Positions 3,341 to 19,025 of a DNA stretch of 64,000 bases are shown one piece after another. Numbering within the stretch: the first letter of the stretch is position 1; every line of letters starts with the position of its first letter. Source of the stretch: Escherichia coli. Lineage in GTDB: Bacteria > Pseudomonadota > Gammaproteobacteria > Enterobacterales > Enterobacteriaceae. A program made the position numbers and the translations under genes. The notes beneath the pieces are model-generated. The model saw only the letters and a list, made by a program, of their open reading frames with translations, was not told where the DNA came from and searched no databases. Location: assembly GCF_003334765.1 (NCBI RefSeq), contig NZ_QOWT01000015.1; one strand, given 5' to 3'.

Positions 3341-4795
3341 ATGTATATCGGGATAGATCTTGGCACCTCGGGCGTAAAAGTTATTTTGCTCAACGAGCAG
3401 GGTGAGGTGGTTGCTGCGCAAACGGAAAAGCTGACCGTTTCGCGCCCGCATCCACTCTGGTCGGAACAAGACCCGGAACAGTGGTGGCAGGCAACTGATC
3501 GCGCAATGAAAGCTCTGGGCGATCAGCATTCTCTGCAGGACGTTAAAGCATTGGGTATTGCCGGCCAGATGCACGGAGCAACCTTGCTGGATGCTCAGCA
3601 ACGGGTGTTACGCCCTGCCATTTTGTGGAACGACGGGCGCTGTGCGCAAGAGTGCACTTTGCTGGAAGCGCGAGTTCCGCAATCGCGGGTGATTACCGGC
3701 AACCTGATGATGCCCGGATTTACTGCGCCTAAATTGCTATGGGTTCAGCGGCATGAGCCGGAGATATTCCGTCAAATCGACAAAGTATTATTACCGAAAG
3801 ATTACTTGCGTCTGCGTATGACGGGGGAGTTTGCCAGCGATATGTCTGACGCAGCTGGCACCATGTGGCTGGATGTCGCAAAGCGTGACTGGAGTGACGT
3901 CATGCTGCAGGCTTGCGACTTATCTCGTGACCAGATGCCCGCATTATACGAAGGCAGCGAAATTACTGGTGCTTTGTTACCTGAAGTTGCGAAAGCGTGG
4001 GGTATGGCGACGGTGCCAGTTGTCGCAGGCGGTGGCGACAATGCAGCTGGTGCAGTTGGTGTGGGAATGGTTGATGCTAATCAGGCAATGTTATCGCTGG
4101 GGACGTCGGGGGTCTATTTTGCTGTCAGCGAAGGGTTCTTAAGCAAGCCAGAAAGCGCCGTACATAGCTTTTGCCATGCGCTACCGCAACGTTGGCATTT
4201 AATGTCTGTGATGCTGAGTGCAGCGTCGTGTCTGGATTGGGCCGCGAAATTAACCGGCCTGAGCAATGTCCCAGCTTTAATCGCTGCAGCTCAACAGGCT
4301 GATGAAAGTGCCGAGCCAGTTTGGTTTCTGCCTTATCTTTCCGGCGAGCGTACGCCACACAATAATCCCCAGGCGAAGGGGGTTTTCTTTGGTTTGACTC
4401 ATCAACATGGCCCCAATGAACTGGCGCGAGCAGTGCTGGAAGGCGTGGGTTATGCGCTGGCAGATGGCATGGATGTCGTGCATGCCTGCGGTATTAAACC
4501 GCAAAGTGTTACGTTGATTGGGGGCGGGGCGCGTAGTGAGTACTGGCGTCAGATGCTGGCGGATATCAGCGGTCAGCAGCTCGATTACCGTACGGGGGGG
4601 GATGTGGGGCCAGCACTGGGCGCAGCAAGGCTGGCGCAGATCGCGGCGAATCCAGAGAAATCGCTCATTGAATTGTTGCCGCAACTACCGTTAGAACAGT
4701 CGCATCTACCAGATGCGCAGCGTTATGCCGCTTATCAGCCACGACGAGAAACGTTCCGTCGCCTCTATCAGCAACTTCTGCCATTAATGGCGTAA
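3341..4795 (+). CDS. xylB: Xylulokinase (484 aa)
   Basis: ORF track; MYIGIDLGTSGVKVILL... FGGY-family sugar kinase N-terminus; immediately downstream of xylA. Confidence 0.95.
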   Translation: MYIGIDLGTSGVKVILLNEQGEVVAAQTEKLTVSRPHPLWSEQDPEQWWQATDRAMKALGDQHSLQDVKALGIAGQMHGATLLDAQQRVLRPAILWNDGRCAQECTLLEARVPQSRVITGNLMMPGFTAPKLLWVQRHEPEIFRQIDKVLLPKDYLRLRMTGEFASDMSDAAGTMWLDVAKRDWSDVMLQACDLSRDQMPALYEGSEITGALLPEVAKAWGMATVPVVAGGGDNAAGAVGVGMVDANQAMLSLGTSGVYFAVSEGFLSKPESAVHSFCHALPQRWHLMSVMLSAASCLDWAAKLTGLSNVPALIAAAQQADESAEPVWFLPYLSGERTPHNNPQAKGVFFGLTHQHGPNELARAVLEGVGYALADGMDVVHACGIKPQSVTLIGGGARSEYWRQMLADISGQQLDYRTGGDVGPALGAARLAQIAANPEKSLIELLPQLPLEQSHLPDAQRYAAYQPRRETFRRLYQQLLPLMA

Positions 4796-10660: not shown

Positions 10661-10813
10661 ATGCCGCAGAAATATAGATTACTTTCTTTAATAGTGATTT
10701 GTTTCACGCTTTTATTTTTCACCTGGATGATAAGAGATTCACTGTGTGAATTGCATATTAAACAGGAGAGTTATGAGCTGGCGGCGTTTTTAGCCTGCAA
10801 ATTGAAAGAGTAA
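10661..10813 (+). CDS. hokA: Hok-family type I toxin (50 aa)
   Basis: Hand-translated (too short for the ORF track): MPQKYRLLSLIVICFTLLFFTWMIRDSLCELHIKQESYELAAFLACKLKE; GGAGG SD 6-10 nt upstream; single transmembrane helix plus conserved Cys typical of Hok/Gef. Confidence 0.85.
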   Translation: MPQKYRLLSLIVICFTLLFFTWMIRDSLCELHIKQESYELAAFLACKLKE

Positions 10814-13951: not shown

Positions 13952-14054
13952 GCTTCTCTCCATTCACTGATAAGGCGATCACCTTAGCCTGAAATATGAT
14001 GAAGGAAAACTGAAGAATGCCAGGTGATTTCTGCATCACCTGGCATGAAAGGGA

Positions 14055-14714
14055 TTACAGCGGGCTTAAGGTAATTTCTACACGGCGGTTTTGCGCCTTA
14101 CCTTCTGCGGTGCTGTTGCTGGCGATTGGGTTAGCCGGGCCAAGGCCCTGAGTACGGATGCGGCTGGCGTCCACGCCCTGGGTGATCAACGCGCTGGCAA
14201 CGGAATCCGCACGTTGCTGGGAGAGACGCATGTTCAGGTCGTGACCACCCGTGCTGTCGGTATAACCAATCACGTTAACCGCCGTTTTCGGATACTCTTT
14301 CAGTACCATTGCCACGCCGGTCAGGGTGTTAGCGCCCGCCGGTTTCAGGGTCGCGCTGCTGCTGTCGAAGGTCACATTGTTCGGCATATTGAGGATAATG
14401 TTATCCCCGCTGCGGGTTACGCTAACACCAGTGCCGCGCATTTTGTCGCGCAGCTTCGCTTCCTGCACATCCATGTAATAACCAACGCCGCCGCCCAGAG
14501 CTGCGCCTGCTGCTGCGCCAATCAGCGCGCCTTTACCGCGATCTTTCTTCGAAGAAGAGAGCGCACCAATACCCGCGCCCACGAGAGAGCCCAGACCTGC
14601 GCCGATAGCAGATTTACCTGCTTCGCGTTCGCCGGTGTAAGGGTTAGTTGTGCAGCCAGATACCGCCAGAGCGCCACTCACTACGGCGGCAATAAGATAA
14701 ACACGTTTCTTCAT
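14055..14714 (-). CDS. yiaD: OmpA-domain outer-membrane lipoprotein YiaD (219 aa)
   Basis: ORF track; lipobox SGC, Gly-rich linker, C-terminal OmpA-like peptidoglycan-binding domain (...NRRVEITL). Confidence 0.9.
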   Translation of the reverse strand: MKKRVYLIAAVVSGALAVSGCTTNPYTGEREAGKSAIGAGLGSLVGAGIGALSSSKKDRGKGALIGAAAGAALGGGVGYYMDVQEAKLRDKMRGTGVSVTRSGDNIILNMPNNVTFDSSSATLKPAGANTLTGVAMVLKEYPKTAVNVIGYTDSTGGHDLNMRLSQQRADSVASALITQGVDASRIRTQGLGPANPIASNSTAEGKAQNRRVEITLSPL

Positions 14715-14866
14715 TGTTAATCCTTAATAACCTTTTTATTCTTTGCCACGGGTTCCGTGGCGGGAGATTATGCCGCGTGAACATGAAGATTATTCCTGGG
14801 AATACTCGGAAATTTGTAAGTAATATTTAACTGCTCAATACATCTAACCTTTCAGGAGTCTTCGGT

Positions 14867-17200
14867 TTGGCCAACTCATCCTCACGATATTCCGTTCTGA
14901 CTGCCGCCCATTGGGGGCCCATGCTGGTTGAAACCGACGGCGAAACCGTGTTTAGCTCGCGTGGCGCGTTAGCCACAGGAATGGAAAACTCCTTGCAGAG
15001 CGCGGTTCGCGACCAGGTTCACAGCAATACGCGGGTACGATTTCCAATGGTGCGAAAAGGCTTTCTTGCGTCACCGGAAAACCCGCAAGGCATTCGTGGG
15101 CAGGATGAATTTGTTCGCGTGAGTTGGGATGAGGCGCTGGATCTTATTCACCAACAACATAAACGCATTCGTGAGGCTTATGGTCCGGCATCGATTTTTG
15201 CTGGTTCCTACGGCTGGCGTTCAAACGGCGTGCTGCATAAGGCCTCGACATTATTACAACGCTATATGGCGCTGGCAGGCGGTTATACCGGGCATCTGGG
15301 GGATTATTCGACCGGCGCGGCACAGGCGATCATGCCGTATGTCGTGGGTGGTAGTGAAGTTTATCAACAGCAGACCAGTTGGCCGCTGGTGCTGGAACAT
15401 AGCGATGTCGTGGTGCTGTGGAGTGCTAACCCACTCAATACGCTGAAAATTGCGTGGAATGCATCCGATGAGCAGGGGCTTTCTTACTTTTCTGCACTGC
15501 GTGACAGCGGGAAAAAGCTGATCTGCATTGATCCAATGCGATCGGAAACCGTCGATTTCTTTGGCGATAAAATGGAGTGGGTGGCACCGCACATGGGCAC
15601 CGATGTTGCGCTGATGCTGGGGATCGCCCATACGCTGGTGGAAAATGGTTGGCACGACGAAGCGTTTCTGGCGCGTTGCACCACAGGTTATGCCGTCTTC
15701 GCCTCTTATTTGCTGGGCGAGAGTGACGGAATAGCGAAAACCGCCGAATGGGCAGCAGAGATTTGTGGTGTTGGCGCAGCGAAAATCCGCGAGCTGGCGG
15801 CTATTTTCCACCAAAATACCACCATGCTGATGGCAGGCTGGGGAATGCAGCGCCAACAGTTTGGTGAGCAAAAACACTGGATGATCGTCACGCTGGCAGC
15901 AATGTTGGGGCAAATCGGCACACCCGGCGGCGGTTTTGGTCTTTCTTACCATTTTGCCAATGGTGGTAACCCCACGCGGCGTTCTGCGGTGCTCTCTTCC
16001 ATGCAGGGCAGCTTGCCGGGTGGCTGCGATGCGGTGGATAAAATCCCTGTTGCCCGCATTGTTGAAGCACTGGAAAACCCTGGTGGCGCATATCAACACA
16101 ACGGTATGAACCGACATTTCCCGGATATTCGTTTTATCTGGTGGGCGGGCGGTGCCAACTTTACTCATCATCAGGATACCAATCGCCTGATCCGTGCCTG
16201 GCAAAAACCGGAGCTGGTGGTGATCTCTGAATGCTTCTGGACGGCGGCGGCAAAACACGCGGATATCGTTCTGCCTGCGACTACCTCTTTTGAGCGTAAT
16301 GATCTCACCATGACCGGTGATTACAGTAATCAGCATCTGGTGCCGATGAAGCAAGTGGTGCCGCCACGCTATGAAGCGCGTAATGATTTTGATGTTTTTG
16401 CCGAGTTAAGTGAACGCTGGGAGAAGGGCGGTTATGCACGTTTTACGGAAGGAAAAAGTGAGCTGCAATGGCTGGAAACGTTTTATAACGTTGCCCGACA
16501 GCGCGGGGCAAGCCAGCAGGTTGAATTGCCGCCATTTGCTGAGTTCTGGCAAGCCAACCAGTTAATTGAGATGCCGGAAAACCCGGACAGCGAGCGGTTT
16601 ATTCGCTTCGCTGATTTTTGCCGCGATCCGCTGGCGCATCCGTTAAAAACCGCCAGCGGCAAGATTGAAATCTTCTCACAGCGTATTGCCGATTACGGTT
16701 ACCCGGATTGCCCTGGGCATCCAATGTGGCTGGAGCCGGACGAATGGCAGGGCAATGCCGAACCAGAACAGTTGCAGGTACTTTCTGCCCATCCGGCGCA
16801 CCGCCTGCACAGCCAGCTGAATTACAGTTCTCTGCGCGAATTGTACGCGGTGGCAAATCGTGAGCCTGTCACCATTCATCCTGACGATGCCCAGGAGCGC
16901 GGCATACAAGATGGCGATACTGTTCGGTTGTGGAACGCACGCGGGCAAATTCTTGCCGGAGCGGTCATTAGCGAGGGAATTAAACCTGGCGTGATTTGCA
17001 TTCACGAAGGGGCATGGCCGGATCTGGATTTAACCGCTGACGGTATTTGTAAAAACGGCGCAGTGAACGTGCTGACCAAAGATCTCCCCAGCTCGCGGCT
17101 GGGGAATGGCTGTGCGGGTAATACGGCGCTGGCATGGCTGGAAAAATACAACGGTCCGGAACTGACACTTACAGCGTTTGAACCACCGGCCAGCTCATAA
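14867..17200 (+). CDS. bisC: Biotin sulfoxide reductase, molybdopterin oxidoreductase (777 aa)
   Basis: ORF track; DMSO-reductase-family protein without a Tat signal (cytoplasmic); N-terminus [25 protein letters not shown]. Confidence 0.93.
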
Positions 17201-17609
17201 TCCATGTGGGTAGTTGGGTTTCATCCTGCCATGCGCAATCGACAATGTGAAAACCCTGTGCCTGGTAAAAATTTATCGCCGGTTGATTTTTTTGATAAAC
17301 CTCCAGCATCAGGTGGGGATGGCGCTGCTGCACATACTGCATCAGCGCCTTACCAATACCGCGCCTGACGGCCTTCGGTGCGACAAACATCGCTGCCAGA
17401 AATCGGCCTTCCATAATGCTGACAAAACCGAGAAGCTTACCGTCTTCTTCCCAGACCCAGTTTTGCGCGTTGGCAAGATAGGCATCCCGCACCAGCGGAA
17501 TGCAGTCACGCCAGTAATTCGCTTTTATAAAGGGATGCCCCCAGGTTGTACTTTCCAGCCACAGTTCGAGGATCGCGGGGAGTTCTGAACGTTGCGCTTC
17601 CCGAATCAT
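17169..17609 (-). CDS. yiaC: GNAT-family N-acetyltransferase YiaC (146 aa)
   Basis: ORF track; GNAT motifs (...[12 protein letters not shown]...); 3' end overlaps the bisC 3' end by 32 bp (convergent). Confidence 0.88.
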
Positions 17610-18169
17610 GGTTTATTTCCCGGATAGCAACAGCAGCCAACCACATGATCATTCACCAGCCCACATGCCTGCATAAAGGAGTAACAGATTGTGGTGCCGA
17701 CAAACTTAAAACCACGTTTTTTCAGTGCCTTAGATAGGGCGTCGGAGGCGGACGTAGATGTGGGAATTTCGCTCAACGTTGTGGCTTGTGTCACCTGTGG
17801 CTGATGATTTACAAACGACCAGACAAAGTCGACAAACGGTTCGCCGTTCTGTTCCATTTGCAGGTACGCCCGCGCATTACCAATAATTGCCTGAATTTTC
17901 CCTCGATGGCGGATAATCCCGGCGTCCTGTACCAGTCTTTCGACATCCTCTTCCTGCATTGCTGCGACCTTCACCGGATCGAACTGATGAAAGCAGGCGC
18001 GATAGTTTTCGCGTTTTTTGAGGACGGTGATCCACGATAATCCAGCCTGCTGCCCTTCAAGGCAGATCATTTCGAACAGTTTTTTACTGTCAGTTTCAGG
18101 CACGCCCCACTCATTATCATGGTAGGCAATATAAAGCGGGTCCTGACTCACCCAGCCGCAACGTTCCAT
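17606..18169 (-). CDS. tag: DNA-3-methyladenine glycosylase I (187 aa)
   Basis: ORF track 17606..18406; start placed at MERCGWVSQDPLYIAYHDNEWGVPE (canonical Tag N-terminus); the stop overlaps the yiaC start by 4 bp. Confidence 0.92.
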   Translation of the reverse strand: MERCGWVSQDPLYIAYHDNEWGVPETDSKKLFEMICLEGQQAGLSWITVLKKRENYRACFHQFDPVKVAAMQEEDVERLVQDAGIIRHRGKIQAIIGNARAYLQMEQNGEPFVDFVWSFVNHQPQVTQATTLSEIPTSTSASDALSKALKKRGFKFVGTTICYSFMQACGLVNDHVVGCCCYPGNKP

Positions 18170-18326
18170 ACTTTCCCTCGCTATGTACCCGATCGTAAAA
18201 ATTTCAGCCGCTTTTCTTGACGCATCGGTGAAAAAGTCAATATTTAATACAGGGCTACTATGCCCGATATCCTTCATACAATGACAATAATATTGCCGAA
18301 TTCGGCTCTTCCCTGGAGTCGTGTTA

Positions 18327-19025
18327 ATGATCATAAAAAAAAGCGGTGGTCGCTGGCAGCTAAGCCTGCTGGCGAGCGTGGTAATCAGTGCCTTTTTTCT
18401 CAACACAGCTTACGCCTGGCAACAAGAATATATCGTTGATACGCAACCCGGACTTTCCACAGAGCGTTACACCTGGGATAGTGATCATCAACCTGATTAC
18501 AACGATATTTTGTCGCAACGTATTCAAAGTAGCCAAAGGGCGCTGGGACTGGAAGTCAATCTGGCGGAAGAAACCCCTGTGGATGTGACCAGCAGTATGA
18601 GTATGGGCTGGAATTTTCCTTTATATGAACAGGTTACAACCGGCCCGGTCGCGGCATTACATTACGATGGCACAACCACCTCGATGTATAACGAGTTTGG
18701 CGACAGTACTACCACGCTGACCGATCCGTTATGGCATGCCAGCGTGAGTACCTTAGGCTGGCGTGTTGACTCCCGGCTTGGCGATCTCCGACCCTGGGCG
18801 CAAATCAGCTATAACCAGCAATTTGGCGAGAATATCTGGAAGGCGCAATCAGGCCTGAGCCGGATGACGGCGACAAACCAGAACGGCAACTGGCTGGATG
18901 TCACCGTAGGCGCTGATATGTTGCTCAATCAAAATATTGCCGCCTATGCCGCGCTAACTCAGGCAGAAAATACCACTAATAATAGCGACTATCTGTATAC
19001 GATGGGGGTTAGCGCCAGATTTTAA
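18327..19025 (+). CDS. yhjY: YhjY, autotransporter beta-barrel-like protein (~232 aa)
   Basis: ORF track 18321..19025; signal peptide MIIKKSGGRWQLSLLASVVISAFFLNTAYA; C-terminus ends ...YTMGVSARF (aromatic terminal residue typical of outer-membrane beta-barrels). Start could be off by 1-2 codons. Confidence 0.8.
   Translation: MIIKKSGGRWQLSLLASVVISAFFLNTAYAWQQEYIVDTQPGLSTERYTWDSDHQPDYNDILSQRIQSSQRALGLEVNLAEETPVDVTSSMSMGWNFPLYEQVTTGPVAALHYDGTTTSMYNEFGDSTTTLTDPLWHASVSTLGWRVDSRLGDLRPWAQISYNQQFGENIWKAQSGLSRMTATNQNGNWLDVTVGADMLLNQNIAAYAALTQAENTTNNSDYLYTMGVSARF

Follow-up and report, generated by a model that had tools for sequence, protein, structure and literature searches.

The junction analysed here lies within a window of 64 kb of Escherichia coli DNA (the whole stretch of 64,000 nucleotides that was examined; all positions are counted from its first base unless an MG1655 coordinate is given). 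Three annotated genes meet in it, and the DNA shared by two of them is the subject of this report:

14867 to 17200, plus strand: bisC coding sequence, biotin sulfoxide reductase of 777 amino acids (open reading frame list and RefSeq).
17169 to 17609, minus strand: yiaC coding sequence, GNAT lysine acetyltransferase of 146 amino acids (open reading frame list and RefSeq).
17606 to 18169, minus strand: tag, 3-methyladenine DNA glycosylase I (annotation).
17169 to 17200, no strand assigned: 32-bp convergent coding overlap of bisC and yiaC.

BisC is known from the literature as a biotin and methionine sulfoxide reductase, and its gene runs from a TTG start to a TAA stop at 17198-17200. The TTG is annotated at 14867, while the open frame runs 12 codons further upstream (14831-14867), and called BisC lengths range from 759 to 804 amino acids in other genera, leaving the start less certain than the stop. 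YiaC has been described as a lysine acetyltransferase and lactylase (PMC6199490, PMC9636275); its homologues are 143-148 amino acids long, and the gene ends in a TAA that occupies 17171 to 17169 in reading direction. The tag gene precedes yiaC in the same orientation, and its 3' end shares 4 bp with the yiaC start; the two are probably co-transcribed. This 4-bp overlap (17606-17609), with a tag product of 187 amino acids, is found in Escherichia and in one metagenome locus (L020), whereas in the other genera examined the product has 192-193 amino acids and the overlap with yiaC measures 20-23 bp (loci L009-L015, at 3501-3523), the yiaC start having stayed fixed and the tag stop having shifted.

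The initial annotation described the 3' ends of bisC and yiaC as occupying the same 32 nucleotides, and both the open reading frame coordinates and the RefSeq annotation agree: the genes converge and share exactly 32 bp, from 17169 to 17200, with each stop codon inside the coding sequence of the partner on the opposite strand. Within the shared DNA, third codon positions of bisC face second positions of yiaC, second positions face third, and first positions face first. RefSeq/PGAP coordinates are identical in independent, unrelated E. coli genomes. In MG1655, RefSeq places yiaC at 3713652..3714092 (plus) and bisC at 3714061..3716394 (minus); relative to that genome the window is in reverse complement, with no mismatches across the 6 kb compared, and positions convert as MG1655 position = 3731261 minus window position.

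Misassignment of a stop codon, or a sequencing error, could create an apparent overlap between genes that in truth do not overlap, and the initial annotation had named a correction of this kind as the way in which its claim might fail. We found nothing that favours such an artefact. Several YiaC database entries of other lengths represent fragments or frameshifted copies; with a single exception, the ones inspected share the same C-terminus. Against it, both stops are unambiguous and both frames are open and ungapped in 13 taxa, and at least 80% of an 801-bp query spanning the junction is present in 5422 of the 5426 complete E. coli genomes. Moreover, selection is visible in the codon-position patterns of both frames up to each stop, and both YiaC (PMC6199490, PMC9636275) and BisC are enzymes that have been studied experimentally. 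Both open reading frames are real protein-coding genes on the evidence of homologues with Pfam domains, codon periodicity and purifying selection, a confident YiaC fold and solved relatives of BisC. We therefore reject the artefact as refuted by the comparative data (the 5422 genomes, the 13-taxon frames and the codon patterns) and regard its remaining chance as negligible. By far the most credible reading, in our view, is that the bisC-yiaC overlap is real, already known and ordinary, that is, an annotated tail-to-tail coding overlap of considerable evolutionary age.

The overlap was kept in all 15 further taxa examined in which bisC and yiaC are adjacent, and among these none carried the two genes adjacent but separated. 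Five other Escherichia lineages have the 32-bp form, and exactly 32 bp are also shared in a genome labelled Salmonella, in Citrobacter amalonaticus, Enterobacter ludwigii and Pseudescherichia, and in a JGI metagenome. Lelliottia, Kosakonia and the metagenome locus L020 share 38 bp (YiaC of 148 amino acids), and one locus, L021, shares 23 bp (YiaC of 143 amino acids). The position of the bisC stop is constant in every taxon, and it is the yiaC stop alone that shifts to give overlaps of 23, 32 or 38 bp. The contigs from the Salmonella-labelled genome, Citrobacter, Enterobacter, Pseudescherichia and the JGI metagenome are syntenic, with eptB or osmC, yhjX, yhjY, tag and yiaC facing bisC, and with yiaD next in most loci; the YiaC homologues on them are 54-65% identical. 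The contig search, made with a single YiaC protein, reached Escherichia only, and the other genera were reached by searching the protein database and looking up contigs; the look-up for Kluyvera (P0133) returned nothing. The origin of the overlap dates back at least to the divergence of Escherichia from Enterobacter and Kosakonia.

One E. coli strain has lost most of bisC. In BE104 (locus L003, 2264-2509) nearly all of bisC is gone, a 153-bp 5' remnant being annotated as a pseudogene, and yiaC is complete, including the bases it has in common with bisC. The loss resembles a deletion, either engineered or natural, that ends short of yiaC.

Conserved elements of both proteins lie within the shared DNA:

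17171 to 17188, plus strand: codons for BisC T769-P774 (TAFEPP), the C-terminal motif of the family; the opposite strand encodes YiaC residues 141-146.
17190 to 17198, minus strand: codons for YiaC M138-S139-W140, which close the last beta-strand and form the M-x-W of this GNAT subfamily.

In the C-termini of about 100 homologues, the motif (V/L)TAF(D/E)PP is found throughout the BisC/TorA/DorA family, with TAF(D/E)PP carried in Alphaproteobacteria, Aliivibrio, Aeromonas, Nitrospinae and Sphaerobacteraceae. It also occurs in relatives that have no yiaC neighbour, as well as in a torYZ-type paralogue whose next downstream gene is 76 nt away. It aligns in the solved DMSO reductase DorA (1EU1), at most two residues from the C-terminus, and in TorA (7L5I); beyond the two prolines, the tails of the family vary in both length and sequence. 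When 1.84 billion representatives were searched with a YiaC profile, M-x-W proved conserved across the subfamily, with between one and about ten variable residues after it. The AlphaFold model of YiaC (mean pLDDT 94) places the strand at residues 133-140 and gives low confidence to the tail at 141-146 (block mean 50), which is disordered in this model; the solved structure of YjaB (2KCW), a paralogue of YiaC, aligns as far as YiaC position 134. Opposite M138-W140 lie the codons of the BisC tail, A775-S777, together with the first base of the bisC stop. The two conserved cores consequently abut with a single base between them, the BisC core ending at 17188 and the YiaC core starting at 17190, and what extends past each is a short tail: three variable residues in BisC, and three to eight residues across taxa in YiaC.

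The tail of YiaC appears dispensable and is loosely constrained, on the basis of the AlphaFold model, the truncation at L021 and the tail changes within E. coli. In E. coli proper the tail reads PVVQTL in place of the consensus QADQTP, a replacement of 4 of 6 residues for which the only change in BisC is D to E. At L021 (3410-3432), a change of BisC Asp to Asn (GAT to AAC) creates TTAA, an earlier yiaC stop on the other strand, by which three residues are lost to leave the 143-residue protein; one codon change has hit both proteins.

Constraint on the two frames was measured in an ungapped 13-taxon alignment of the 3'-terminal 900 nt of bisC and the whole of yiaC. Four of the 9 bisC third positions inside the overlap are invariant, against 19 of 289 outside it (Fisher p=0.0027), and for yiaC the counts are 8 of 9 and 11 of 136 (Fisher p=1.6e-7), p-values that are indicative only since the aligned taxa are related and the tests overstate their independence. 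Overall, 23 of the 32 sites of the overlap are invariant, a level matched by 36 of the 1277 windows of 32 nt in the 1.3-kb alignment. To judge from these codon-position patterns, both frames are under purifying selection within the overlap. The invariant synonymous sites of bisC face YiaC M138, W140, Q144 and T145, and the variable bisC third positions alter YiaC residues 141, 142, 143 and 146 while being silent or conservative in BisC. That the third positions of bisC A770 (GCG) and F771 (TTT) do not vary in the 13 taxa suggests some selection on YiaC Q144 and T145; the YiaC encoded at L021 has neither residue.

A simple account of how such an overlap persists follows from this geometry. Each frame reads on through the core of its partner until it meets a stop, and the tail of each protein is the core of the other read backwards. 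The arrangement would be frozen because each stop sits beyond the conserved motif of the partner, such that any separation by point mutation truncates a conserved element, and both frames constrain the shared bases. Separation of the genes would be possible only via duplication of the shared segment. The overlap itself is likely to have arisen either by deletion of a former spacer along with the old tails, or by loss of a stop codon. We infer that it is a frozen arrangement, and not one selected for its own sake.

Convergent overlaps such as this one are fairly common. Such pairs are more conserved than non-overlapping neighbours, and in E. coli they have been counted at 75 (PMC4161906). Like the others, bisC and yiaC are real genes on opposite strands, with common 3' ends and a short overlap that arises via stop movement; we see no essential difference, the 32 bp being a little above the commonest overlaps of a few bases, and what characterises this pair within the class is that its two conserved cores abut exactly. 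About 10 convergent pairs occur in the 64-kb window, of which two have a coding overlap, yiaC/bisC and ysaE/hokA. The latter, in which ysaE (a small protein gene) opposes hokA/mokA, spans 24 bp at 10790-10813 (MG1655 3720448-3720471), and ysaE-hokA is likewise in the published excludon list discussed below.

The initial annotation further held that the two transcripts must each read through the stop region of the other, and that no intrinsic terminator is visible for either gene inside the overlap. Both statements stand. Transcript overlap is obligatory because each stop lies inside the coding sequence of the partner, and a complete mRNA of either gene includes 32 nt complementary to the other. 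A consensus scan found no terminator-like site in 17169-17200, and folds of the junction on both strands were no more stable than shuffled controls (z +1.70 and -0.07); an Rfam search of 14000-19000 drew no hit, even with the threshold relaxed to E<=1. Nor is there, between or within the two 3' ends, a G+C-rich hairpin with an A tract on one side and a U tract on the other, as in a bidirectional intrinsic terminator. Further along the path of tag-yiaC transcription, inside bisC, there are two candidate sites of termination, and comparable regions occur elsewhere in the window:

17084 to 17106, minus strand: terminator-like hairpin, CCCCAGC-N5-GCUGGGG followed by AUCUUUGGU, 63 nt past the yiaC stop and inside bisC.
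16917, minus strand: Rho termination region, about 252 nt past the yiaC stop, in bisC (by coordinate conversion).
About 28973: antisense Rho region in dppF (MG1655 3702288, plus strand).
About 12584: antisense Rho region in yiaF (MG1655 3718677, plus strand).
About 4316: antisense Rho region in yiaA (MG1655 3726945, plus strand).

The Rho region was reported on the tag-yiaC strand at MG1655 3714344 (plus), where it was classed as antisense to bisC (PMC7815308), and its position is coarse, having been resolved in windows of 800 nt (PMC7815308 Supplementary file 2). In the same data, DirectRNA-seq reads upstream and downstream of the region numbered 90 and 23 without bicyclomycin and 60 and 112 with it, for a Rho score of 7.3 (p=5.5e-14); read-through in the tag-yiaC direction thus increases when Rho is inhibited. 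The RNA past the yiaC stop, from 17168 to about 16880 on the minus strand, is C-rich and G-poor over approximately 290 nt (C/G ratio 1.4-1.7 in most windows, and 1.0 in one), as expected for Rho loading, and this untranslated stretch lies ahead of the Rho zone. Apart from the Rho region, the curated Term-seq tables (PMC7815308) have no entries in MG1655 3713800-3714399, and the TERMITe supplements have no entry for yiaC or bisC. Under the account that these observations favour, tag-yiaC transcription would meet no efficient intrinsic terminator and would enter bisC in antisense, to be stopped by Rho some 250 nt on.

An alternative is that the tag-yiaC transcript ends mainly at the intrinsic hairpin at 17106..17084 on the minus strand, with Rho acting only as a backup, in which case the transcript overlap would be short and fixed, at about 90-120 nt. 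The consensus scan describes a 9-pair stem with 6 G-C pairs, perfect across 8 bp and followed by AUCUUUGGU, and the hairpin is kept in most taxa (Escherichia, Enterobacter, Lelliottia and a metagenome); its palindrome, CCCCAGC/GCTGGGG, draws on CCC (Pro) and GGG (Gly), two uncommon codons. However, the stem is followed by a short U tract with interruptions, Kosakonia and Pseudescherichia have lost the intact hairpin and Citrobacter has a weak one, and the scan found 5 such sites in the region where 2.5 were expected by chance. Furthermore, no 3' end is recorded at the hairpin in the curated Term-seq tables, and read-through on the yiaC strand is sensitive to bicyclomycin farther downstream. 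As a terminator the hairpin is marginal, and we consider it unlikely to be the main end of the transcript. As a separate observation, most genera retain the CCC and GGG codons at 17084-17106, possibly a sign that the hairpin is under selection.

The preferred account, antisense read-through ended by Rho, has parallels close by. Antisense Rho regions have also been reported in dppF, yiaF and yiaA (PMC7815308 supplementary table), just downstream of the convergent partners yhjV, ghrB and wecH, respectively, and since these three other convergent pairs of the window show equivalent regions, the behaviour is a general one. The yiaC/bisC junction likewise has a bicyclomycin-sensitive region after C-rich, G-poor RNA, and we see no apparent difference from the known pattern of Rho-terminated read-through past convergent genes. 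The comparison with overlapping bidirectional terminators, such as that of ynaJ-uspE (Ju et al. 2019; bioRxiv 10.1101/2022.10.23.513370), is less close: there too the genes are convergent and polymerases meet in the same DNA, but those sites have a hairpin in the overlap and uniform, Rho-independent 3' ends, whereas the bisC-yiaC overlap has no hairpin and its yiaC side is Rho-dependent.

For transcription leaving bisC, the published tables report no 3' end and no Rho region. A run of seven T residues at 17288-17294 was considered as a bisC terminator and rejected, there being no stable stem ahead of it. One strong structure lies along the read-through path, and it is the only one:

17320 to 17350, plus strand: stable hairpin (-18.8 kcal/mol), inside yiaC, 120-150 nt past the bisC stop.

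This hairpin was likewise rejected as a terminator, as it has no U tract. It is retained in several taxa, with some paired changes, a conservation that cannot be interpreted because its arms encode the conserved A-L...Q-R of YiaC. A C-rich stretch at 17331-17512 lies on the same path, and from this composition the bisC transcript is likely to be ended by Rho inside yiaC.

Overlapping transcripts of convergent genes raise the question of regulation. Of the convergent excludons that ExcludonFinder identified in at least 50% of 58 MG1655 transcriptomes, 165 in all, yiaC-bisC is one (PMC12288877). Overlap of the transcripts follows from the coding geometry, and the RNA-seq of that study and the Rho region within bisC point the same way. 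One hypothesis is that the pair is a functional convergent excludon, in which tag-yiaC and bisC transcription repress each other and both the overlap and the absence of a terminator have been selected; collision of RNA polymerases, RNase III cleavage of the 3' duplex, or both, would then make expression mutually exclusive. The listing itself speaks for this, as do the higher synteny reported for excludon pairs as a class (PMC12288877) and the conservation of overlap and synteny across genera at this locus. Yet coding constraint on both frames fully explains that conservation, and the excludon call is made by coverage thresholds, a criterion that a coding overlap meets almost by definition. Rho, moreover, ends antisense read-through here as at other convergent pairs in the window, there is no known functional link between the bisC and tag-yiaC units, and we found no reciprocal-expression or dsRNA data for yiaC-bisC. 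While the pair resembles other convergent excludons in being explicitly listed and in having transcripts that necessarily overlap, classic excludons combine overlap of untranslated regions with reciprocal expression, whereas the bisC-yiaC overlap is coding. We judge a functional excludon to be distinctly improbable.

A stronger version would have the overlap selected across the Enterobacteriaceae as regulatory coupling, with bisC, a sulfoxide reductase gene, and tag-yiaC, a unit serving DNA repair and protein acylation, antagonising each other through collision or duplex RNA and with the frozen third positions of A770 and F771 reflecting a signal in RNA or DNA rather than the tail of YiaC, and to this we attach even less weight. 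Transcriptional interference or antisense pairing of the 3' ends, both of which the initial annotation had put forward, could possibly occur between bisC and yiaC; any mutual interference of bisC and tag-yiaC is probably a by-product, and a small one at the low expression of both units.

With respect to what is new, standard annotation already shows the overlap, and a published list of overlapping transcripts includes the pair; what the present analysis adds is that the overlap is ancient and locked by the abutting of two conserved C-terminal cores. In practical terms, a clean deletion of bisC or yiaC, or a C-terminal tag on either, alters the partner gene, a point relevant to engineering of the locus. 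Although its importance beyond such bookkeeping is slight, the bisC-yiaC pair is a tidy example of convergent overlaps turning irreversible.
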